A stretch of DNA of 42,507 nucleotides from Escherichia phage glasur. The position numbers and the translations under genes were made by a program. Positions 1 through 23,362 of this stretch are shown here, piece after piece. The stretch is from sequence record MN850583.1, one strand, 5' to 3'. How positions within the stretch are numbered: the first letter of the stretch is position 1; each line of letters begins with the position of its first letter. The notes beneath the pieces are model-generated. The model worked only from the letters and a program-made list of their open reading frames with translations, did not search any database and was not told where the DNA came from.

Positions 1-23
1 TATCACTATAGTCACTTTCATAA
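1..23 (-). promoter_or_regulatory. Inverted exact copy of the 23-nt phage-promoter-like element (TTATGAAAGTGACTATAGTGATA on the minus strand), ending exactly at the window boundary
   Basis: Reverse complement of 1-23 is identical over 23 nt to 20845-20867. It matches the T7 promoter core ACTATAG in the same register. Orientation points out of the window. Confidence 0.45.
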
Positions 24-29
24 TTATCT

Positions 30-128
30 AATGATTACAGTAACTTATAACCTATCTGATAACGGTATCTATCTTATGCAATAACCTATTCAATCAAATA
101 TTTATTCTCAATGATTACAGTAACTTAT
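30..128. repeat. Two copies of a 19-nt direct repeat AATGATTACAGTAACTTAT (30-48 and 110-128) in the AT-rich left terminal region
   Basis: Read directly from the sequence; the copies are 80 bp apart and lie upstream of the early promoters. Confidence 0.7.
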
Positions 129-160
129 CCACTATTTGAGCTATTCAGTGAAAATAATTC

Positions 161-190
161 TTGCAAGTCTGATTAGCTTTATGCTGTAAT
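161..190 (+). promoter_or_regulatory. Host sigma70-type early promoter (TTGCAA-N18-TGTAAT with TGn extended -10)
   Basis: -35 TTGCAA at 161-166, -10 TGTAAT at 185-190 preceded by TGc. First of four similarly built promoters, analogous to the T7 A1-A3 arrangement. Confidence 0.5.
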
Positions 191-263
191 TCATCTCGCC
201 GGGTAGCAGAACATCGCTACACGGTGGCAAGACGGTAACACTGCTCTTTAACAATCTGGTGTG

Positions 264-292
264 TTGACAAGGCAAGCTCACTATGCTGTAAT
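264..292 (+). promoter_or_regulatory. Host sigma70-type early promoter (TTGACA-N17-TGTAAT, extended -10)
   Basis: Consensus -35 TTGACA at 264-269, 17-nt spacer, TGcTGTAAT with -10 at 287-292. Confidence 0.65.
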
Positions 293-400
293 GCTTCCAG
301 TCAGCCAGACAAGCCAAACAGTCATGGATAAAGACGTTAAAACCCTCGCAGGCTAACTGGTACGGTTTAATCATCTCAGAACGGGCGCTGATTAAAACGG

Positions 401-429
401 TTGACAGGATGAAACGAGTATGCTGTAAT
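401..429 (+). promoter_or_regulatory. Host sigma70-type early promoter (TTGACA-N17-TGTAAT, extended -10)
   Basis: TTGACA at 401-406, 17-nt spacer, TGcTGTAAT with -10 at 424-429. Confidence 0.65.
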
Positions 430-479
430 GCACACCAGATTGACAGGCAGCAAGCCAGTCAGTCAGAAGTAAAAAGTAG

Positions 480-508
480 TTGACACGCTGAATACGATGT
501 GATGTAAT
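480..508 (+). promoter_or_regulatory. Host sigma70-type early promoter (TTGACA-N17-TGTAAT)
   Basis: TTGACA at 480-485, 17-nt spacer, TGaTGTAAT with -10 at 503-508. Confidence 0.65.
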
Positions 509-986
509 CAGCACCGAGTTGAAAGGTTGCAAAACAACCTGCTCTGAGTGAACGTAAACAGGCCACGTAGTGTCTCGGCCTCATGGGTATCCGGCGCAGC
601 TAGGAACTGGTGAGGGCATCGCTGAAAAGCAACGGTATCGCAACATTGCTAACGCCGTAGGGGTAGCGCCCGATGCAAGGGAACGGAGAAGCGCGATAGA
701 CGCAGCGCAGTATCAGCACAATCCCAAACGTCTTATAAGGCGCGGAGTATAGCGGGTAGGTAGTCAAACGGCTTGTTAGCTGGCAACGGTGAGCAAGATA
801 CGCGACGGACTGCTGGAAGACTCCTGAGAGTGGATGCAGACAATATCCATGGCGCGAAATGGGCGGGGCGATTTTTCAGGGTAGTGAATCCGACAAGCCA
901 ATCAATGCCACTGAGTGCAGACTGTACGGCGCGTCACAATGGGTTCACTATCCACCTGAAAATAGCCAACAACTGGAGAAATAACT

Positions 987-1379
987 ATGTACCGTATCTA
1001 TGCAAGCGCATACCGCCAGAACAATGCTGAGTGTGTTAATCTGGCGCTTCATTGCAAGGCACTGCGAACGGTGCAGGATATGTTCGGAGTGATTCCGGTC
1101 ACACTGACAGGCAAGTTCGACAATGCGTATGAGTTAAGCATGGTCTTCCCTGTCGATGGAATCTACGAAATCAGACAGGCTGTTAAGCTGTTCTGTAAAG
1201 CCTTTGAACAGGACTGCATCATGGTAGTGACCGACGACAATGATGCAATCTTCATGGATTCACCATATCCGGGCAAGCCTGCTGGCAAGTTTGTCAGCAA
1301 GACAGAAGCGGAGATGGAGGCCGGGCAGTTCACTGCTTGGACTTACGATGGTGAGCAATTTTGGGTAGTGGAGGCGTAA
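987..1379 (+). CDS. Early protein of unknown function (130 aa)
   Basis: ORF track 987..1379. ATG preceded by GGAG about 8 nt upstream. First gene after the roughly 470-nt leader. Confidence 0.7.
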   Translation: MYRIYASAYRQNNAECVNLALHCKALRTVQDMFGVIPVTLTGKFDNAYELSMVFPVDGIYEIRQAVKLFCKAFEQDCIMVVTDDNDAIFMDSPYPGKPAGKFVSKTEAEMEAGQFTAWTYDGEQFWVVEA

Positions 1380-1380
1380 T

Positions 1381-1452
1381 ATGTTCACTGCACTCTGTGT
1401 GATAGCGGCGGCGTGCTGGCTGATTGACCAGCGCCTGTCTAAGCGAGCCTGA
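1381..1452 (+). CDS. Possible small hydrophobic peptide (23 aa, MFTALCVIAAACWLIDQRLSKRA)
   Basis: Below the ORF-track size cutoff. ATG sits 1 nt after the upstream stop with GGAGG 7 nt upstream; the peptide is hydrophobic. Confidence 0.35.
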   Translation: MFTALCVIAAACWLIDQRLSKRA

Positions 1453-1453
1453 T

Positions 1454-1537
1454 ATGTGGGACTTACTGGTAGCGTTGTTCTGGTTCGTCTTTGCAGGCTT
1501 GTGGATTTACTGGTTGACTCGTCCCAAATTATGGTGA
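1454..1537 (+). CDS. Possible small membrane peptide (27 aa, MWDLLVALFWFVFAGLWIYWLTRPKLW)
   Basis: ATG 1 nt after the previous stop; one predicted transmembrane helix; only a weak ribosome-binding site. Confidence 0.3.
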   Translation: MWDLLVALFWFVFAGLWIYWLTRPKLW

Positions 1538-1543
1538 CTGCCT

Positions 1544-1565
1544 AATGCGTCTTGCGAGGCGCATT
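1544..1565 (+). promoter_or_regulatory. Intergenic RNA hairpin with TCTTGCGAGG loop (candidate RNase III or processing site)
   Basis: Stem AATGCG/CGCATT around loop TCTTGCGAGG. Same loop family as the hairpins near 2143, 2498, 2906, 5328, 5632 and 25635. Confidence 0.4.
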
Positions 1566-1601
1566 GTGAAGTAACCAACCAACAACCCGACGAGGTGTAT
1601 C

Positions 1602-2129
1602 ATGACTACTGTTAAATATACTGCATTCAAAGATGCTGCGGCGCTGGACAAAGCTATCGAAGCGACTGTCAAAAAGGCGCACTCACTCCGTAACGATATT
1701 CAGAACGTTGCGGTCGGTATTATCCTGCACGCTTACCATCACGGCGACTACACTCGTGCTGAGTCGTTCACTCACCAACTGGGTGATGGCGTCCGTGGTA
1801 AGGCGCTGGTTGACTGGTTCGTCCAGTTCGGCGGCCTGATTGTGGGTGAGCATGAAGATGGCAAATCCGGCTTCGTTGGCTGGAAGGGTGCCGACTTCAT
1901 CAAAGAGAACATCGACAAGGCGAAAGCCACGATGTGGTGGACTTGCAAGCCAGAAGCGGCCTTTGATGGCTTCGACCTGCAAGATGCGCTCGAAAAGCTG
2001 ATTGCCAAAGCTGAAAAGGCAATGAACAAGGCGAACGAGCTGCGCCACGAAGGGCGCGATGAGGATGCGAACAAGGTTGTCGTGCCTCAGAACGTGCTGG
2101 ACGGCCTGCGCAAGCTGAAAGCTGCGTAA
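1602..2129 (+). CDS. Early protein of unknown function (175 aa)
   Basis: ORF track. GAGGTG about 7 nt upstream of the ATG. Confidence 0.75.
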   Translation: MTTVKYTAFKDAAALDKAIEATVKKAHSLRNDIQNVAVGIILHAYHHGDYTRAESFTHQLGDGVRGKALVDWFVQFGGLIVGEHEDGKSGFVGWKGADFIKENIDKAKATMWWTCKPEAAFDGFDLQDALEKLIAKAEKAMNKANELRHEGRDEDANKVVVPQNVLDGLRKLKAA

Positions 2130-2142
2130 GCGGGATTGACTC

Positions 2143-2179
2143 AAGCCATCTTGCGAGGTGGCTTTATGGCAATTCTGCC
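2143..2179 (+). promoter_or_regulatory. Leader element: hairpin (loop TCTTGCGAGG) followed by GGCAATTCTGCC (copy 1 of 4)
   Basis: Stem AAGCCA/TGGCTT, then GGCA-N4-TGCC at 2168-2179. The same two-part element precedes the genes at 2561, 2965 and 3584. Confidence 0.5.
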
Positions 2180-2202
2180 CCAACAATTACGGAGTATCAT
2201 CC

Positions 2203-2487
2203 ATGACCACTAAAACTGTTCTGGCCTACGTCACCAAGAAAGGCGAAGAAGTGTACGGCTATGCTGTGTCTATCGACGGCGGCCAAAACTACCTGCATCA
2301 CGTTCGTGAAGAAGGTGAACCGACCGACCATGATGGCATTCTGGAAACGCTGAAAGGCATTCCGCTGCCGCACGAAATCATCTGTATGCTGGCTGGCCAG
2401 ACGGAAGATGACCTGCAACTGCGTCACGGCGATGACCTGACCATTCAGGGTATCGGCAGCTTCGAAGCTGACGTAGACGACGAATAA
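2203..2487 (+). CDS. Small acidic protein (94 aa), member 1 of the tandem acidic array (C-terminal SFEAD motif)
   Basis: Internal ATG of track ORF 2158..2487 chosen because GGAG lies 8 nt upstream. Acidic composition; ends GIGSFEADVDDE. Confidence 0.65.
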   Translation: MTTKTVLAYVTKKGEEVYGYAVSIDGGQNYLHHVREEGEPTDHDGILETLKGIPLPHEIICMLAGQTEDDLQLRHGDDLTIQGIGSFEADVDDE

Positions 2488-2497
2488 GCGTTGTCCT

Positions 2498-2535
2498 GCT
2501 GCATCCTTGCGAGGGTGCAGCGTGGCAATACTGCC
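2498..2535 (+). promoter_or_regulatory. Leader element: hairpin (loop TCCTTGCGAGGG) followed by GGCAATACTGCC (copy 2 of 4)
   Basis: Stem GCTGCA/TGCAGC, then GGCAATACTGCC at 2524-2535. Confidence 0.5.
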
Positions 2536-2560
2536 TTATTCCAATCTGAGGATTAATCCT

Positions 2561-2899
2561 ATGTCTACACTGAAACTGGTACTGATTTCTAACATCGCTG
2601 CTGACGCTTTCGACGCTGATGACGTGGCAGAACTGCAACCGCAGACCTTCGTTGGCTTCCAGCGTGATGGCGAACCGGGCGCACTGGTTGTTGGCCCGAC
2701 TGGTGGTGACGGCGCGGAAGAAGTGAAAGCGCACTTCCACGAGGGCAACCTGCCGCCTGCACTGCCGCTGCAACTGGTTGCCATGTTCGAAGGTCTGGCA
2801 TTCGTCAGCCCGGACAACCTGAAAGAAGCGACCATCGAAGTCATCGCTGAGTACGAGCAGGACGGCGACGACGATGATGACGTGGACTTCTCTGCGTGA
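2561..2899 (+). CDS. Small acidic protein (112 aa), member 2 of the tandem acidic array (poly-Asp C-terminus)
   Basis: ATG at 2561 with TGAGGA upstream, inside track ORF 2507..2899. Ends ...EQDGDDDDDVDFSA. Confidence 0.65.
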   Translation: MSTLKLVLISNIAADAFDADDVAELQPQTFVGFQRDGEPGALVVGPTGGDGAEEVKAHFHEGNLPPALPLQLVAMFEGLAFVSPDNLKEATIEVIAEYEQDGDDDDDVDFSA

Positions 2900-2905
2900 T
2901 ACCTT

Positions 2906-2943
2906 ACTGCCTCGTTGCGACGGGGCAGTGCGGCAATCATGCC
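2906..2943 (+). promoter_or_regulatory. Leader element: hairpin (loop TCGTTGCGACGG) followed by GGCAATCATGCC (copy 3 of 4)
   Basis: Stem ACTGCC/GGCAGT, then GGCAATCATGCC at 2932-2943. Confidence 0.5.
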
Positions 2944-2964
2944 CAACCTAACTGGAGATTTACC

Positions 2965-3246
2965 ATGGCTACAATCAACGTGTATTCCCTGAGCAACGGC
3001 GGTCTGGCATTCATCGCTGGTGATAAGGTAGACGAAGCGCCGTCGCTGGGCGTGACGCCGAAACCGGAAGCCAGCCGTGATGATGTTATCGCGGAAGTCA
3101 AGGGTGCGCTGGAAGACCTCGGCGGTCTGCTGTTCGTCCTGAATGGTGGCAAGCTGTCGGTTGAAAAGCTGGACGCGCTGGAACCTGTCTTTGTTGAGAG
3201 CTTCGAAGCTGACAACATCGACCTCGCTGCTTTCGCTGACGCCTAA
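2965..3246 (+). CDS. Small acidic protein (93 aa), member 3 of the tandem acidic array; clear paralogue of the gene at 3584
   Basis: ATG at 2965 with GGAG upstream. N-terminus MATINVYSL..., central LGGLLFVLNGG and C-terminal SFEAD match the 3584 product. Confidence 0.7.
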   Translation: MATINVYSLSNGGLAFIAGDKVDEAPSLGVTPKPEASRDDVIAEVKGALEDLGGLLFVLNGGKLSVEKLDALEPVFVESFEADNIDLAAFADA

Positions 3247-5379: not shown

Positions 5380-5625
5380 ATGGCTAAGTATGACGTATAC
5401 AAAGACGGCGAAGGTGACTGGACTATCGTACCGGAAGGGCAGAAGATTGCAGCCCCGGTCGATGTGATTGCAATGAACGGCGCGGCGGCTGAGACACTGG
5501 CTGATGTGCAGCGCATCGCAACCACCAAGCGTGCAGGCTTCGAAGCTAACCGCACGCATGTCAAGTCGCAGGCTGTCATCAATCGCTTCGGCCCGTATGA
5601 ACTGGCCGGGACTATCGAAGTGTGA
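5380..5625 (+). CDS. Early protein of unknown function (81 aa)
   Basis: ATG at 5380 with GAGAGG upstream, inside track ORF 5281..5625. Confidence 0.65.
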   Translation: MAKYDVYKDGEGDWTIVPEGQKIAAPVDVIAMNGAAAETLADVQRIATTKRAGFEANRTHVKSQAVINRFGPYELAGTIEV

Positions 5626-5631
5626 TAAGCT

Positions 5632-5656
5632 ACTGCCCCTGCGTGCCGGGGGCAGT
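5632..5656 (+). promoter_or_regulatory. Intergenic RNA hairpin (8-bp stem ACTGCCCC/GGGGCAGT, loop TGCGTGCCG)
   Basis: Read directly from the sequence; sits between two genes. Confidence 0.4.
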
Positions 5657-5684
5657 GTCATTATCAAACGATGGAGGTAACATC

Positions 5685-5969
5685 ATGGTGCTGGCATCTG
5701 AATCAATCATTGAGCACGCTGCTGATATCCGGGCGGCGGTTGAAAAGCGCGGGGTCGCAGCTACCCGTGGTCATCTCTCTGGCAACGGTGGCCTGCGTGG
5801 TCACAGCGTAGGCGGTGTGTTCCCCTGCGTTATCTTTGCTCGTGGCAATCCTAATGTGAAGCTCGACTGGTGCTTCCTCACACCAGCGGGTGATGAGTTC
5901 GATGGCTTCATTAGTTATGAGGATGCGTATGCAGCCGCGCAAGAATGGCTGGAGAAAAGAGAGGTGTAA
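5685..5969 (+). CDS. Early protein of unknown function (94 aa)
   Basis: ATG at 5685 with GGAGG upstream, inside track ORF 5622..5969. Confidence 0.65.
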   Translation: MVLASESIIEHAADIRAAVEKRGVAATRGHLSGNGGLRGHSVGGVFPCVIFARGNPNVKLDWCFLTPAGDEFDGFISYEDAYAAAQEWLEKREV

Positions 5970-14341: not shown

Positions 14342-15316
14342 ATGAGTAGACTTCAACGCTTACTCCACAATGCAGAGGAACTTGATGACCAGTTTGATGG
14401 TTACGTGTCTGGTCGTATCTTGCTGTGCGATGCTGACTCCACGGTCTACGTCGCGGCAGCAACCACGAAGAACATCGAGACAGCGAAGACACGATTCTGT
14501 TCCGGGGTACTGACCGCCAAGTTCCTCGCCAATGCTCAGTCAGTTCGTATCGAGTTGACCGCTGCGGAGTGTACGAAAGCTGGACGGTACAAGCTGCGTG
14601 GGGCCAAGCTGTACCAAGGCAACCGAGACAAAGACCGCAAGCCCGGTCTGGTCGAGCCGTTGCGTAAAGCAATTGGCCGGAACATGTTCAACGTCCCGGA
14701 TGGTGAGGACTGGTACGTCCACCTGAACTTTGAGTTCGAGGCAGACGATACCTTAATCATGGATGCGTGGACGATTGGCATTAATGATGCAGTAATCTAC
14801 AGCGCGGATAAAGACCTGCGTTGTTGGCCGGGCAGATTCCTTGACCCGTATGACAACAAGGTGCTGGAGCCGTGCGTTGGTATTGGCAGGCTGTGGTGGC
14901 ATGAAACGAAAAGCGACAAGTCGCTGGTCGGCCACGGGCCTATCTTCTTTTGGGCACAGATGTTGATGGGCGACACCGCCGACAACATCGCTGGCGTGAA
15001 GAAGGTTGGGAAGCAGACTGCTTATGATATGCTGGTTGATTATCAAGAGATTGATGATGAATCAGTGGTTGCGGAATTGGTGCTGCGTGAATACATGCAG
15101 CGTGACCAGAACCCGTGGCCGGAGGCAGTGGCGCTGTGGCTGTACCGCACGCCGACCTACTCATTCGCAGCCCACTTGAACACGCTGACCTTGAGCAAGG
15201 AGCTGCGTGTCTGGCTGCATAATAAACTGGGTGAGGAATGGTATGCGGAAAGTGACTGGCGCGACTCTGTTGCAGCTACGGAAGAATGCGATGGGTTGCA
15301 ACTGCCCACTCTGTGA
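14342..15316 (+). CDS. 5'-3' exonuclease (FEN/T7 gp6-like)
   Basis: H3TH-type motif GDTADNIAGVKKVG and acidic clusters. Good GGAGGA ribosome-binding site. Confidence 0.85.
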   Translation: MSRLQRLLHNAEELDDQFDGYVSGRILLCDADSTVYVAAATTKNIETAKTRFCSGVLTAKFLANAQSVRIELTAAECTKAGRYKLRGAKLYQGNRDKDRKPGLVEPLRKAIGRNMFNVPDGEDWYVHLNFEFEADDTLIMDAWTIGINDAVIYSADKDLRCWPGRFLDPYDNKVLEPCVGIGRLWWHETKSDKSLVGHGPIFFWAQMLMGDTADNIAGVKKVGKQTAYDMLVDYQEIDDESVVAELVLREYMQRDQNPWPEAVALWLYRTPTYSFAAHLNTLTLSKELRVWLHNKLGEEWYAESDWRDSVAATEECDGLQLPTL

Positions 15317-18384: not shown

Positions 18385-20819
18385 TGATGGACTTACTTGC
18401 TGAGCAGATTCGACTGGAAGAAGAAGCGCGAGCCAGACACCGCGAGGGCTGGCTGGATAATATCAGAGAGGCGTTGGCCGCTGGCCGGGCTGGTTCAGTA
18501 CCATTGCTCCAGCGTATGATGGTTGAGGCGTATCCTCAAGTTGAAGCTGCGATGCAAGAACTCCTGAATGAAACTGCCCGTGGTTATGGTGCGCAGTACC
18601 GGACATACATGCGTGAGCTGGGGCCGCGTGCCTGCGCCTCACTCGCATTGAGCATGGCTGTGTCTGGTGCTGCTGCTGAGCAGGCAGTGCTTAACTTGCT
18701 CAAGGATATGGGCAAGGCTCTGATGGCTGAGGTAGTGTACCTTCGGGCCAAGGCAGCCGGGCCTGTGCAGGCTGCTTACATGGCCAAGGTTAAGACTGAC
18801 GTTAAGCGCTCACGTTCCAAGTCAGCTAACCATGTGTACAACAAGGCGAAAGCGTCGGCGGCTAACGTTGGCGTTGAGCTGGATATCCTGCCGCAGCGTG
18901 CGCTCATCACCATTGGTAAGATGATGATGAAGTGCATTGAGCCTACTGGTCTGCTGGTCACTATGCGCGTTGGCGGCAACCACCGTCAGCGTGGCACTGC
19001 GCACTTCGCACTGCATGAAGATGTGCTGGCAACGATGAAAGATTGGATGGACTTGCCACGGGCAGACGGCCTGTGCTGTCCTCCAATGATTATCCCGCCA
19101 GCGCAGATTGCACGCGATGGTCGTAGCGGTATGTGGCACTCTCCGGGGCAGGCGGCCATGTACCGGGCAATCAGTCGCATGAATCACCGAGGCTATCGTG
19201 CGCTGGGTGTTGACCCACTGCCCATCATAGAGCCGTGTATGATGCTCAGCAGCGTTCCGTACCGAGTTAACCCAATGGTACTGGAGTTCCTGAGAACGAA
19301 CCGTACAGGCGTTATGGGGCTGCCTGTGCCACCGCGTGAGCCTAAGCTCCCGTTCACTATCCCGGCAGGCGTCAGCTTCGCACAGTACATTAGCAAGTTC
19401 CCACCCGAAATGCAGCAGCAGATGGAGTCGGAAGCGCACGAGTACAAGGTGAAGACCCGTCTGTATTACAACGAGCTGCGCAAGTTCACGTCACAGATGC
19501 TGGCGCTGAACGGTGCAGTCAAAGAGGCCGAGCGCTATGCGCCATACGATAGGGTATATCTCCCGACTTACGCCGATACGCGGGGCCGAATTTATTATTC
19601 TTCGACCCTTAACCCTCAGTCCATCGACGCGGTGCGAGCGCTGCTCGAACTTGCTGAACCAGTGGCTCTCGGAAGTGAGGGGCTGTTCTGGCTCAAGGTA
19701 CATGTTGCGAATTGTTTTGGATACGACGCCACAGACTTCGACGACCGGGCAGCGTGGACGGACAAAACACTCCCCAGACTACGTGAGGCGTGCCGTCTTC
19801 CAGAGGCATTTGATTCGTTCTGGTCAGAAGCCGATAGCCCTATCTCAGCGTGGGCTGCTGCTGTTGAACTCATTCGAGCTATCGACTCAGGAAGTCCTGA
19901 GACTTATCCCTGCCGAGTGGTTACGCAGTGGGACGCTACATGTTCAGGACTCCAGCACCTCAGTGCGATGCTACGAGATGAGGTTGGCGGTGCTGCTGTC
20001 AATCTTGTCGATAGCGTGGGAAGAAAAGCAGACATATATCTCAAGACGGCAGCAGCGGCGATGCAGGCTCTTGAAGAAAGTGAAGCGGCTGCGCCGACGA
20101 CAATGGGTTCGTGGCTTGTTTCCATCGGCATTGTTCGGGCTATGGCCAAGAAGCCAGTGATGACCTACGTGTATGGGGCAACCCGGCACGGCATGGTTGA
20201 TTACTACTGCCTGTACCTGCGCGAGAACCGGGTCAAGCTGCCGGAGGGCAAGAGCCTGCTGGAGTGTGCTCAGTTCATTGCTGAGTTTATGTGGGCTGCT
20301 ATCCCTCGCGTCGTGCCGAAAGCTGCTGAGCTTATGGCATGGTTGCAGGCTATCGCAGTAGAGGCTGCGAGCATGGGTGAGTACGTGGAGTTCACTGCGC
20401 CGTCAGGTCTGCGTGTGGTCAATCTGTATCAGGCCAGCAAAGAGATTGCGCTGAACAACATCAACCTCATGGGTATCCACGGCATCAAGCTGCGCGAGTA
20501 TCTGGATAAGCCAGACGGTCGCAAGTGTGCCGCTGCGATTGCTCCGAATTTTGTACACGCTATGGATGCCAGTCACATGATGAAGGTTCTGTGGGAGATG
20601 TGGAATAACGGGGTATACATGGTATCCATCCACGACTCGTTCGGTGTAGCGGCAGCTCATGCCGGGCTACTGCACAAGGTCATACGTGAAAAGTTTGTGC
20701 AGATGTATGAGGAATGCGACCCTATTCAGCAACTTGCGTCAGCATATAACCGTGAAGCTCCAGCTCGCGGTAATCTGGACATCCAGCTTGTGAAGAAATC
20801 AAGCAAGTTCTTCTGCTGA
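18384..20819 (+). CDS. Single-subunit DNA-dependent RNA polymerase (T7 RNAP family)
   Basis: 811 aa. [29 protein letters not shown] matches the T7 RNAP [20 protein letters not shown] region, and VSIHDSFG matches catalytic motif C. Located at the end of the DNA metabolism module. Confidence 0.93.
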   Translation: [811 protein letters not shown]

Positions 20820-21796: not shown

Positions 21797-23362
21797 ATGG
21801 CATACGACGCGCAGAACGTCAGCTATGAATCGCTCTGGCAAAAGTACCGGGACAGTAACGTAGTCACCAAGGCTCGTGAGTACAGTCGTTACACGTTGGC
21901 CAAGCTGGTCAGTGAATACGACCGCGCCGAAGTAGACGACATGAACCGCCAGCAGATTACTCGTGACTACCAATCTGTCGGCGCTCTGCTCGTTAACAAC
22001 CTCGTCGCTCGACTGGGTGAGTTCCTGTTCCCGGCATCAGCCCGGTTCGTAAAGCTGAAACTCGATAAGGTGTCTGACCAACAGCGGCAGCAAATGTCCA
22101 AGGTTAATCAGGCACTCATCACTATTGAAAAGGGCATCGTAGACAAAGCCAAAGAGAATGGCGGCTACGCTGACCTGTTAATGACCATTGCCCAACAAGC
22201 AGTCACTGGTAACGCCGCGCTGTACCGCGATATGGAAACTGGAACGTACCGAGTGTACGGGCTGGAATCCTTCGTGGTGCAGCGCGACGGTCGTGGCGTT
22301 GTTACGGACGCCGTGGTCAAAGAACGCATCCAGTGGGATTCCCTCGACAAAGCGTTTCAGGACATGCTGAACGCCAAGGGCTTCCGCTGTGGTGGTAACA
22401 AACGTGTGTGGCTGTACACTCGCGTCCTCCGGGTTCGGAAGGACAGTGGGCTGTATGGCTATGAAGTAACGCAGCAGGTGGGCAACTACCAAGGCTGTGT
22501 CTACACCCCCGGTAAAGATTACTACCCTGAAAAAGTCTGCCCTTGGATTTTCCCAGTGTGGTCTTTGAAGTCTGGCGAGCATTATGGTCGCGGGATTGTC
22601 GAAGACCACGCTGGGGATTTCGCACGTCTGTCGATGCTGTCCGAGCACTCTGCTCTGTACATGCAAGAGGCGCTGCGTGTCCTGTGGATGCTGACTGGTT
22701 CTGGCGGCAACGTCGATGACATTGAATCCGCGCAGACCGGGCAGGTCGTACCTCTCCAGAATGGCACCACGCTGTCTGGTCTTGAGGTCGGGGATTACCA
22801 GAAAGTTCAACAGGCCCGTGACGAAATTAACCAGATTGTGCAGCGACTCGCGCAGGCGTTCATGTACACTGGTGAGTTCCGTGACTCGGAGCGTACCACC
22901 GCAACCGAAGTGCAGCAGGTAGCAACCAGCGCCGAACGTGGGCTGGGCGGCCCGTACTCGATGCAGGCAAAGACCCTCCAGATTCCTCTGGCATATGTCT
23001 TGCTCGCAGAGATTGACGAGTCCTCCGTACCTGACATTGTGGGTGATATCCTGACGCTTCAAGTTGAAGCTGGTCTGGATGCCCTCGGTCGCAGCATCGA
23101 AGCTGAGACGCTGATTCGTGCGCTCTCGGATTCGCAGGCAGCAATGGTTGCTGTCCAAAACATTAACGGCGTTGCCAACGTCATTGACCCGCAGAAGGTC
23201 ATTGAGGTTATCTTCGCTTCCAACGGCGTCGCGCTTGATGACTATCGTAAGTCAGCGCAAGACCTCGCAAATGAAGGTCAGCAAATCGACAGAGCAGCAG
23301 CCGCTGCCGCAGGCGTACAGCCGGGCGCAGTCGATGTAGCGCCGAACGTCGCTCAGATTTAA
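21797..23362 (+). CDS. Head-tail connector (portal) protein, T7 gp8-like
   Basis: 521 aa, at the canonical position before scaffold and capsid genes. GGGAG ribosome-binding site. Confidence 0.8.
   Translation: MAYDAQNVSYESLWQKYRDSNVVTKAREYSRYTLAKLVSEYDRAEVDDMNRQQITRDYQSVGALLVNNLVARLGEFLFPASARFVKLKLDKVSDQQRQQMSKVNQALITIEKGIVDKAKENGGYADLLMTIAQQAVTGNAALYRDMETGTYRVYGLESFVVQRDGRGVVTDAVVKERIQWDSLDKAFQDMLNAKGFRCGGNKRVWLYTRVLRVRKDSGLYGYEVTQQVGNYQGCVYTPGKDYYPEKVCPWIFPVWSLKSGEHYGRGIVEDHAGDFARLSMLSEHSALYMQEALRVLWMLTGSGGNVDDIESAQTGQVVPLQNGTTLSGLEVGDYQKVQQARDEINQIVQRLAQAFMYTGEFRDSERTTATEVQQVATSAERGLGGPYSMQAKTLQIPLAYVLLAEIDESSVPDIVGDILTLQVEAGLDALGRSIEAETLIRALSDSQAAMVAVQNINGVANVIDPQKVIEVIFASNGVALDDYRKSAQDLANEGQQIDRAAAAAAGVQPGAVDVAPNVAQI

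Follow-up and report, generated by a model that had tools for sequence, protein, structure and literature searches.

The early transcripts of phages T7 and T3 begin with a leader (the "initiator" RNAs) in which an RNase III site, R0.3, lies upstream of gene 0.3; leader and site were reportedly described by Dunn and Studier. The put RNA of phage HK022 is ∼70 nucleotides (nt) long, forms two stem-loops, and acts in cis in processive antitermination, and the rrn leader of Escherichia coli has tandem promoters, boxA antitermination, and RNase III processing stems. Here, we analyzed Escherichia phage glasur (record MN850583.1), the 42,507 nt of which we call the window, and in it positions 509 to 986 of the plus strand, located between the early promoters and the first gene. 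We propose that host RNA polymerase probably transcribes this segment as the 5′ leader of the early operon and that the segment represents a new family of cis-encoded, large, multidomain structured RNA.

Like the T7/T3 leader, the glasur leader is an untranslated segment between tandem host-polymerase promoters and the first gene, an anti-restriction gene, and a long irregular hairpin (at least ∼20 bp, with internal loops) stands just upstream of the first ribosome-binding site, so that the leader would be released as a separate RNA. Unlike that leader, to which it has no detectable sequence similarity (blastn of positions 480 to 990 against 50,697 phage records), it extends ∼470 nt from the last promoter instead of the ∼175 nt from T7 A3, and in place of a single processing hairpin it has ∼23 helices, a pseudoknot, and GNRA tetraloops, RNase III cleavage being predicted only. 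An earlier note on this DNA had read the segment as a leader or small RNA analogous to that of T7 and possibly holding regulatory structure, which was right in outline but too modest for a fold of this size, absent from Rfam.

Like put, the glasur leader is a structured RNA encoded directly downstream of early promoters by a phage whose long transcripts depend on host polymerase, but it is several hundred nucleotides longer, and no terminators needing suppression were found between 1 and 20 kb. With the rrn leader, the region shares tandem strong promoters, an exact boxA (242 to 254) after the first of them, a structured RNA that is long and untranslated, and an extended stem of a kind suited to RNase III; unlike in rrn, this boxA lies upstream of the other three promoters, so that most leader transcripts would lack it, protein genes follow downstream, and there is no similarity to E. 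coli genomes. Finally, the Rfam families GOLLD, ROOL, OLE, HEARO, and raiA resemble it in length (>400 nt), in their many covariation-supported helices, GNRA tetraloops, and pseudoknot, and in their phage association, but none of their models matched, its range is narrow (two phage genera, ∼25 sequences), and its position as a 5′ leader is fixed. The kind of element, an untranslated early leader with a processing hairpin, is already known; the variant found here is much larger and structurally far richer.

Coding potential and conservation of the leader

The segment and its borders are as follows.

509-986, plus strand: untranslated structured leader RNA of the early operon; no conserved open reading frame (ORF), curated covarying fold, transcription start expected at ∼513-516.
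161-190, 264-292, 401-429, and 480-508, plus strand: P1, P2, P3, and P4, four tandem early promoters for host RNA polymerase; sequence pattern kept in all relatives, activity predicted.
987-1379, plus strand: first gene, S-adenosylmethionine (SAM) lyase, an anti-restriction SAMase (PF23780, E = 3.3e-27; SAMase in the annotation of relatives).

We looked into the coding potential of the segment. The earlier note had seen ∼470 nt without a credible gene between the early promoters and the first gene bearing a ribosome-binding site, and this was confirmed: P1 to P4 occupy positions 161 to 508, and the first ORF with a Shine-Dalgarno sequence (GGAG at 975 to 978, spacing of 8 nt) starts at 987. 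The two ORFs with alternative starts that it had listed do exist, at 570 to 752 (GTG start) and at 773 to 1030 (TTG start), the latter overlapping the SAMase gene out of frame. Its view that the region is untranslated held as well, as the candidate ORFs are interrupted in close relatives and none is conserved. ORF 570 to 752 contains in-frame stops or frameshifts in 14/14 relatives compared, ORF 773 to 1030 is interrupted in 10/13 relatives where the comparison is complete, and a further plus-strand ORF, 859 to 984, is interrupted in 5 relatives. We rejected these as genes, together with two minus-strand ORFs (600 to 767 and 776 to 901), both of which are frameshifted in relatives. A small-ORF scan found no short ORF with a Shine-Dalgarno sequence shared across relatives; the sole shared ORF has 10 codons and a TTG start, lies a few nucleotides from the expected transcription start, and lacks a Shine-Dalgarno sequence. 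No plus-strand gene is annotated in the leader of any relative, and the annotation of ROV85 has one minus-strand ORF over the 5′ end of its leader. This comparison of relatives shows that the leader does not code for protein. That small proteins are made from any of these ORFs is hardly conceivable: the ORFs are present in the window genome, and the annotators of ROV85 did call one on the minus strand across the promoter-leader boundary, but all are broken in close relatives, the indels that separate relatives (25, 11, 8, 5, and 1 nt) are not multiples of three, Shine-Dalgarno sequences are missing, and substitutions follow base pairs, not codons.

We then compared the leader with its neighbors in 11 or 12 Bonnellvirus genomes. 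Variable columns make up 16% of positions 509 to 735, 12% of positions 855 to 986, and 62% of the middle of the leader (736 to 854); the SAM lyase gene has 23%, gp2 50%, and the promoter region 34%. In its 5′ and 3′ parts, the leader is thus shown by its variation to be under stronger purifying selection than the adjacent genes. The first 3 kb of the window are 97% identical to Escherichia phage usur and 85 to 94% identical to other Bonnellvirus members, and by sequence the window phage is a Bonnellvirus (Autographiviridae), a phiKMV-like coliphage of the genus typified by J8-65.

The leader is 80 to 95% identical in ∼17 Bonnellvirus isolates from E. coli, Enterobacter, Kosakonia, Cronobacter, and Pantoea, and in Pantoea phage LIMEzero (Waewaevirus) and the IMG/VR contigs L020, L026, and L033, the last early promoter is likewise followed by a recognizably homologous leader of about this length. 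The blastn search of phage records (word size of 11) matched only Bonnellvirus and LIMEzero, and blastn of the leader against 5,426 complete E. coli genomes gave no match. Motif scans, with covariance-model searches alongside, covered IMG/VR viral contigs, JGI metagenomes, and GTDB genomes: those of viral contigs added L020, L026, L033, and L021, that of metagenomes added one Lidtsur-like contig only, and a 14-base motif scan of viral contigs and a scan of genome contigs returned chance matches only. The family so far comprises Bonnellvirus and the LIMEzero-like phages. Rfam 15, which includes riboswitches, ribozymes, GOLLD, ROOL, 6S, tmRNA, and RNase P, at a permissive threshold (E ≤ 10) over positions 1 to 3000 gave no leader match and a single noise match elsewhere, no family was found at the gathering score in the whole window or at E ≤ 1 in four relatives, and ARAGORN detected no tRNA-like gene. 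The literature that we searched contained genome descriptions only and no account of the leader. We consider the leader a new RNA family, without sequence relatives among known RNAs and previously undescribed in that literature.

Fold of the leader and its covariation

The fold was built from RNAalifold output and by-eye inspection of columns changing together, after which the pairs were counted. Its domains, all on the plus strand, are listed from 5′ to 3′.

512-550: 5′ helix (512-519/541-550) enclosing hairpin A (524-529/535-540, loop CAAAA); covariation.
552-575: H-type pseudoknot, stem X 552-555/565-568 and stem Y 560-563/572-575; interleaved covarying pairs.
579-615: hairpin C, 15 bp; five pairs changed on both sides, 13/13 sequences 100% paired.
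616-676: three-way junction domain Ha, outer stem 616-620/672-676, with GNRA hairpin 621-630 (GAAA loop), optional 25-nt hairpin insert 633-657, and inner hairpin 660-671 (GGG-GUAGCG-CCC); covariation.
679-725: domain Hb, helices 679-682/722-725, 686-687/713-714, and 691-694/705-708; 13/13 sequences 100% paired.
729-865: domain c, closing stems Pc1 729-733/861-865 and Pc2 740-743/852-855, with the conserved internal loop UAUAAG/GAAAU between them; interior Pc3 744-748/820-824, Pc4 751-755/810-814, GNRA hairpin E 779-790, and hairpin D 830-835/845-850.
867-967: terminal hairpin (∼100 nt), candidate RNase III site, stems S0 867-869/965-967, S1 873-880/955-962, S2 881-891/941-951, S3 892-894/933-935, and S4 897-899/928-930; covariation, z = −3.88.
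970-978: CAACUGG (970-976), complementary to 514-521 and overlapping the Shine-Dalgarno sequence GGAG (975-978); unproven alternative pairing.

In 13 Bonnellvirus sequences, the whole leader has 121 pairs in 23 helices, which are 98.0% paired, and 15 pairs are changed on both sides. None of 500 shuffles reached this covariation score, and sliding the 3′ partners by 1 to 3 columns reduced pairing to 35 to 39%. All the unpaired cells come from two phages with a replaced central module. When the LIMEzero types were included, the central domain showed 27 pairs, 100% paired, 7 of them compensatory. Over the three alignments (whole leader, central domain, and 3′ hairpin), slid-register controls gave 24 to 43% pairing, and the covariation score was reached in 0/500 shuffles. 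Conserved RNA structure, raised as a possibility in the earlier note, was thus borne out by compensatory changes across relatives and by pairing of 98 to 100% against these controls.

The individual domains show how the pairs have changed. Hairpin A has a U-A to A-U exchange and reads GCG/CGC and UCAG/CUGA in the LIMEzero types; the 5′ helix is invariant within Bonnellvirus, and its LIMEzero-type equivalent covaries (CCGG/CCGG versus CCAG/CUGG in L020). In the pseudoknot, pair 555-565 changes from U-A to C-G (7 versus 6 phages) and pair 560-575 from A-U to U-A (4 versus 9). Because these interleaved pairs switch in different subsets of phages, which is hard to explain by linkage, they define the crossing stems. 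The outer stem of Ha has a U-A to C-G change, and the pair closing the GAAA loop of hairpin 621 to 630 changes from C-G to U-A; the insert hairpin is present in 7/13 sequences, and the LIMEzero types have, in place of Ha, a single 7-bp hairpin that keeps the GUAGYG loop. In Hb, GGGA/UCCC is swapped for GGUA/UACC and GCCA/UGGC, and the other two helices carry A-U to C-G and G-C to C-G changes.

Domain c combines conserved ends with a replaceable interior. Pc2, inspected by eye, reads GCGC/GCGC, in the Lidtsur type GCAU/AUGC, and in the LIMEzero types AAUCGU/ACGAUU or AGCCGU/ACGGCU; only one of its pairs scored as compensatory in the 13-sequence count, in which that module is misaligned. The loop of hairpin E is GNRA in every case (GCAA in 10, GUAA in 4, GUGA in 1, and GAAA in 1), and its stem changes from CUG/CGG to CUC/GGG in L020. 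Three pairs of hairpin D are compensatory. An unrelated module takes the place of the interior (∼744 to 850) in BHUENT7, Lidtsur, L044, and RZ4, with the closing stems and the UAUAAG/GAAAU loop kept.

Two alternative pairings, 541 to 550 with 564 to 573 (RNAalifold) and 514 to 518 with 574 to 578 (minimum free energy), were rejected, as they leave covarying columns unpaired or mismatched in usur-type sequences. Sarcin-ricin, CsrA-GGA, and G-quadruplex readings were dropped by eye, the sites being variable or paired.

On the plus strand, 12 pairs are mostly G-U and would be C-A on the opposite strand, and the plus strand folds with −160.7 kcal/mol, ∼21 kcal/mol better than the minus strand (−139.5 kcal/mol). 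The folded functional molecule is therefore the plus-sense transcript. The same pairs bear on a role in DNA or replication, either as a structured R-loop preprimer like ColE1 RNA II or as a DNA binding site near the genome end that enters first. Such a role is highly improbable, since covariation with G-U pairs indicates RNA folding and not recognition of duplex DNA; the phage type also encodes its own primase and helicase (J8-65 annotation). The transcript is purine rich with G exceeding C (GC skew of +0.15 to +0.2 and AT skew of +0.2 to +0.28 along the leader) and would be made near the left genome end by host polymerase before any phage protein, which speaks for this role, but the downstream genes have similar purine and GC skews. 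Another point for a DNA element is the 3′ domain, which does not vary within Bonnellvirus even at sites that could tolerate compensatory change.

A fold of this kind could also serve a trans-acting RNA, which would be abundant seconds after infection, before any protein, and once released would act as a decoy or inhibitor of a host protein (a nuclease, an RNA-binding defense protein, an RNA chaperone, or the degradosome). The pseudoknot, GNRA loops, conserved internal loops, and above-neighbor conservation exceed the needs of a processing site, four tandem promoters stand in front of the leader, the terminal hairpin could be both release site and 3′ protector, and a peripheral module is swapped between phages of different hosts. 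We nevertheless regard this explanation as unlikely, given that the leader resembles no host RNA, E. coli genome, or Rfam family and is always fused to the Shine-Dalgarno context of the first gene (AACUGGAGA), which suits a role in cis.

Terminal hairpin, early promoters, and possible action of the leader

The terminal hairpin stacks helices of 8, 11, 3, and 3 bp with asymmetric loops on the 3′ side and ends 7 nt before the Shine-Dalgarno sequence. In 9 sequences from both genera, its 28 pairs are 100% paired, with 6 compensatory (reached by 0/500 shuffles); the tip is variable, and the 3′-side loops CCA (952 to 954) and ACAAU (936 to 940) are conserved. The minimum-free-energy fold of the terminal stretch equals the covariation structure, and 0/200 shuffles were as stable; the homologous hairpin of LIMEzero has a z of −3.81. 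A covariance model of this hairpin (R1) has a single match in the window, and an ungapped inverted-repeat scan is blind to it. The invariant GGGTTCACTATCC within it resembles a T7-type promoter core, but a phage-promoter reading was rejected: the sequence is unique in the genome and covaries with its partner in L033 and LIMEzero. Of all parts of the proposed mechanism, this hairpin has the best support: by analogy with the leader of T7 gene 0.3, it is probably where RNase III processes the transcript. Since its architecture is like that of the T7 early sites and recurs without sequence likeness, a cut by RNase III separating leader from mRNA is to be expected.

The complementarity between 514 to 521 and 970 to 976 is kept in Bonnellvirus and the LIMEzero types, and 514 to 521 could pair either there or with 541 to 550. 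This opens the way to a riboswitch-like translational switch, in which the fold would sense a ligand or condition and set SAM lyase expression. Both pairings are possible in all these phages, the Shine-Dalgarno context AACUGGAG lies within the conserved element, and a SAM lyase-type gene follows the leader in all members (in L033, only after a 45-codon ORF). Such a switch is still very unlikely: ensemble folding does not favor the long-range helix between the 5′ end and the Shine-Dalgarno sequence and so lends it no support, no SAM or other riboswitch model matched, no terminator follows the leader, and 470 nt is several times the size of known riboswitches.

Several points weigh against the leader being a large structured RNA processed by RNase III. 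The folding energy of the full-length leader is ordinary (z = −1.24; 5′ half, z = −0.49), and the case for the fold is therefore carried by covariation. The sequences behind the covariation are few, closely related, and in part recombinant, and many compensatory changes are common to the same two haplotypes, so that the shuffle counts overstate independence; the pseudoknot, the GNRA loops, the modular evolution, and the terminal hairpin do not depend on this last caveat. Ranked by a simple GC-adjusted residual, the terminal hairpin falls outside the top 12 local folds of the genome in stability, and its invariance within Bonnellvirus could reflect an additional constraint at the DNA level or from protein binding. 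Ensemble folding leaves the Shine-Dalgarno sequence of the Bonnellvirus leader mostly unpaired and not clearly sequestered, and RNase III is therefore not obviously needed for translation. The transcription start, the RNase III cut, and any function in trans are ones that we infer.

We next turn to the promoters that feed the leader. P1 to P4 follow the pattern −35 TTGACA/TTGCAA, a spacer of N17/18, and an extended −10 TGnTGTAAT. The search pattern TGNTGTAAT has 5 matches in the window, 4 of which are the P1 to P4 sites, versus 0.9 expected by chance. The −10 element of P4 ends at 508, from which a transcription start at ∼513 to 516 is expected. All four −10 elements are TGTAAT after TGn, with G at −11, where sigma-70 promoters nearly always carry A, and this form is kept in ∼20 phages and in some LIMEzero-type promoters; a generic consensus promoter scan misses P1 to P4 because of the G where A is required. 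A direct repeat, AATGATTACAGTAACTTAT, is found at 30 to 49 and 110 to 129, in an AT-rich stretch upstream of P1. One more element lies within the array.

242-254, plus strand: boxA-like TGCTCTTTAACAA, followed by GT-rich TCTGGTGTG (255-263), between P1 and P2 and outside the leader; read from the sequence.

This TGCTCTTTAACAA matches the E. coli rrn boxA consensus exactly and, located between P1 and P2, would be carried by P1 transcripts only. LIMEzero-type contigs have the form GCTCTTTA as well, downstream of their first promoter, as do the Melnykvirinae loci described below.

In the annotation of J8-65, the gene for the single-subunit RNA polymerase lies ∼17 kb from the left end, after the DNA metabolism genes. 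Given this layout and existing knowledge of phiKMV-like phages, the early transcripts must be made by host RNA polymerase. The nascent leader could then be a cis modifier of that polymerase, acting by put-like processive antitermination or against Rho; the polymerase could thus read through ∼17 kb of early and middle genes and draw the genome into the cell. Every early promoter gives the leader as its first RNA, long untranslated RNA is otherwise a target for Rho, and the perfect rrn-type boxA is present only after P1, so that P2 to P4 transcripts would need another device. We hold this to be quite unlikely, however. A scan of 1 to 20 kb found no convincing intrinsic terminators on the plus strand (three weak matches) and 7 in total on both strands, below the 14.8 expected; put RNAs are a fraction of the leader's size; and a second boxA-like stretch, UGCUCUGAG (540 to 548), which resembles the start of boxA, is held in a helix and is not conserved in the LIMEzero types, for which reason we rejected it as a boxA.

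For the early-operon leader that we favor, we propose the following course of events. Transcripts from all four promoters would begin with the leader RNA, which would fold during transcription. The compact, nearly all-paired structure would shield 470 to 800 nt of untranslated 5′ RNA from Rho or RNase E; for Rho, this is suggested by its known preferences, since the RNA is purine rich, has more G than C, and is almost fully paired. Host RNase III would cut the terminal hairpin (∼25 bp stacked, with asymmetric 3′-side loops), as at T7 R0.3, and thereby free a stable ∼450-nt leader RNA, leaving an mRNA whose ribosome-binding site is accessible. A host or phage factor is probably bound by the ∼350 nt upstream of the hairpin, either in cis, on the polymerase at work there, or in trans, once the leader has been released; a specific partner is probable because complexity and conservation exceed what a processing site needs.

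Genome setting and leaders of the Melnykvirinae

In the J8-65 record, the first coding sequence begins only at 1468, and the leader gap is by far the largest, the remaining intergenic gaps being ∼150 nt or less. In the LIMEzero-type contig L033, the 45-codon ORF (MYVKILHAIGMQ..., 5568 to 5705) between the leader Shine-Dalgarno sequence and the SAM lyase-like gene has no Pfam match. Downstream in the window, an intergenic module is repeated at 1546 to 1567, 2144 to 2182, 2500 to 2537, and ∼2905 to 2947, ∼45 to 60 nt before the start codons of the next early genes. It consists of a 6- to 7-bp hairpin with the loop CUUGCGAGG, an exact 9-mer found three times genome-wide, each time in these copies; from copy two onward, a small GGCAAU-NN-UGCCC hairpin follows. 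The most stable local plus-strand folds of the genome (104-nt sliding windows) are at 22217 to 22640, 18593 to 18696, 19009 to 19112, and 15017 to 15120, clustering at 22.2 to 22.6 kb and just after the RNA polymerase gene region, with GC-adjusted z values of −3.5 to −5.1. They are probably late-region terminators or regulatory hairpins.

Long leaders are also found in the Melnykvirinae, where MA13, ISAO8, Dev-CD-23823, Spp16, Arno160, phi80-18, and PP2 have unannotated gaps of 490 to 570 nt between the early promoters and a gp2 homologue, in our numbering of loci as follows.

L047: 3877-4438.
L048: 1329-1895.
L049: 933-1461.
L050: 3036-3523.
L051: 1520-2023.
L052: 551-1123.
L053: 608-1147.

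Each of the seven gaps ends in a long hairpin (up to 26 bp, lowest z of −6.6) that directly adjoins or extends into the Shine-Dalgarno sequence of the first major early gene. As in Bonnellvirus, these leaders have sigma-70-like promoters, ∼400 to 500 nt free of genes, conserved hairpins, and a long final hairpin placed at an early gene's Shine-Dalgarno sequence, and their GGUAGC-loop hairpin resembles the window hairpin at 660 to 671. Unlike in Bonnellvirus, they precede gp2 and not SAM lyase, and the sequences are unrelated; covariance models of the 3′ hairpin (R1) and of the central domain (R2) found nothing significant in them. They may be analogous or distantly related leader RNAs, homology being unproven. 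All seven loci also carry an element CAGTGACCG...GAGTCACT (arms GTGAC/GTCAC) between two sigma-70-like promoters.

The feature is real and its family narrow, on evidence that is comparative throughout. We can also envisage, as a tentative and rather unlikely extension, that the leader is an autonomous large functional RNA, with the complexity of a ribozyme or a ribonucleoprotein scaffold, that is the very first product of infection and acts before any protein. It would do so by reprogramming host RNA polymerase for put-like, Rho-resistant, fast elongation that also drives genome entry or, as an RNA decoy, by putting a host nuclease or defense sensor out of action. The Melnykvirinae leaders, equally long and unrelated in sequence, would then be the same device evolving fast.

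Large RNAs with complex conserved folds are scarce in bacteria and phages, and every one studied has given new biochemistry. The position of this leader is critical in timing, as it would be the first molecule made after DNA entry, ahead of an anti-restriction gene and behind four tandem promoters. As a module for processing and stability alone, it would carry the T7 RNase III paradigm over to phiKMV-like phages and account for the 1-kb "empty" genome end left blank in annotations. If it binds polymerase or a host defense factor, it would constitute a new RNA-based mechanism of host takeover; it would also be of use as an insulating leader in engineered phages and expression systems.

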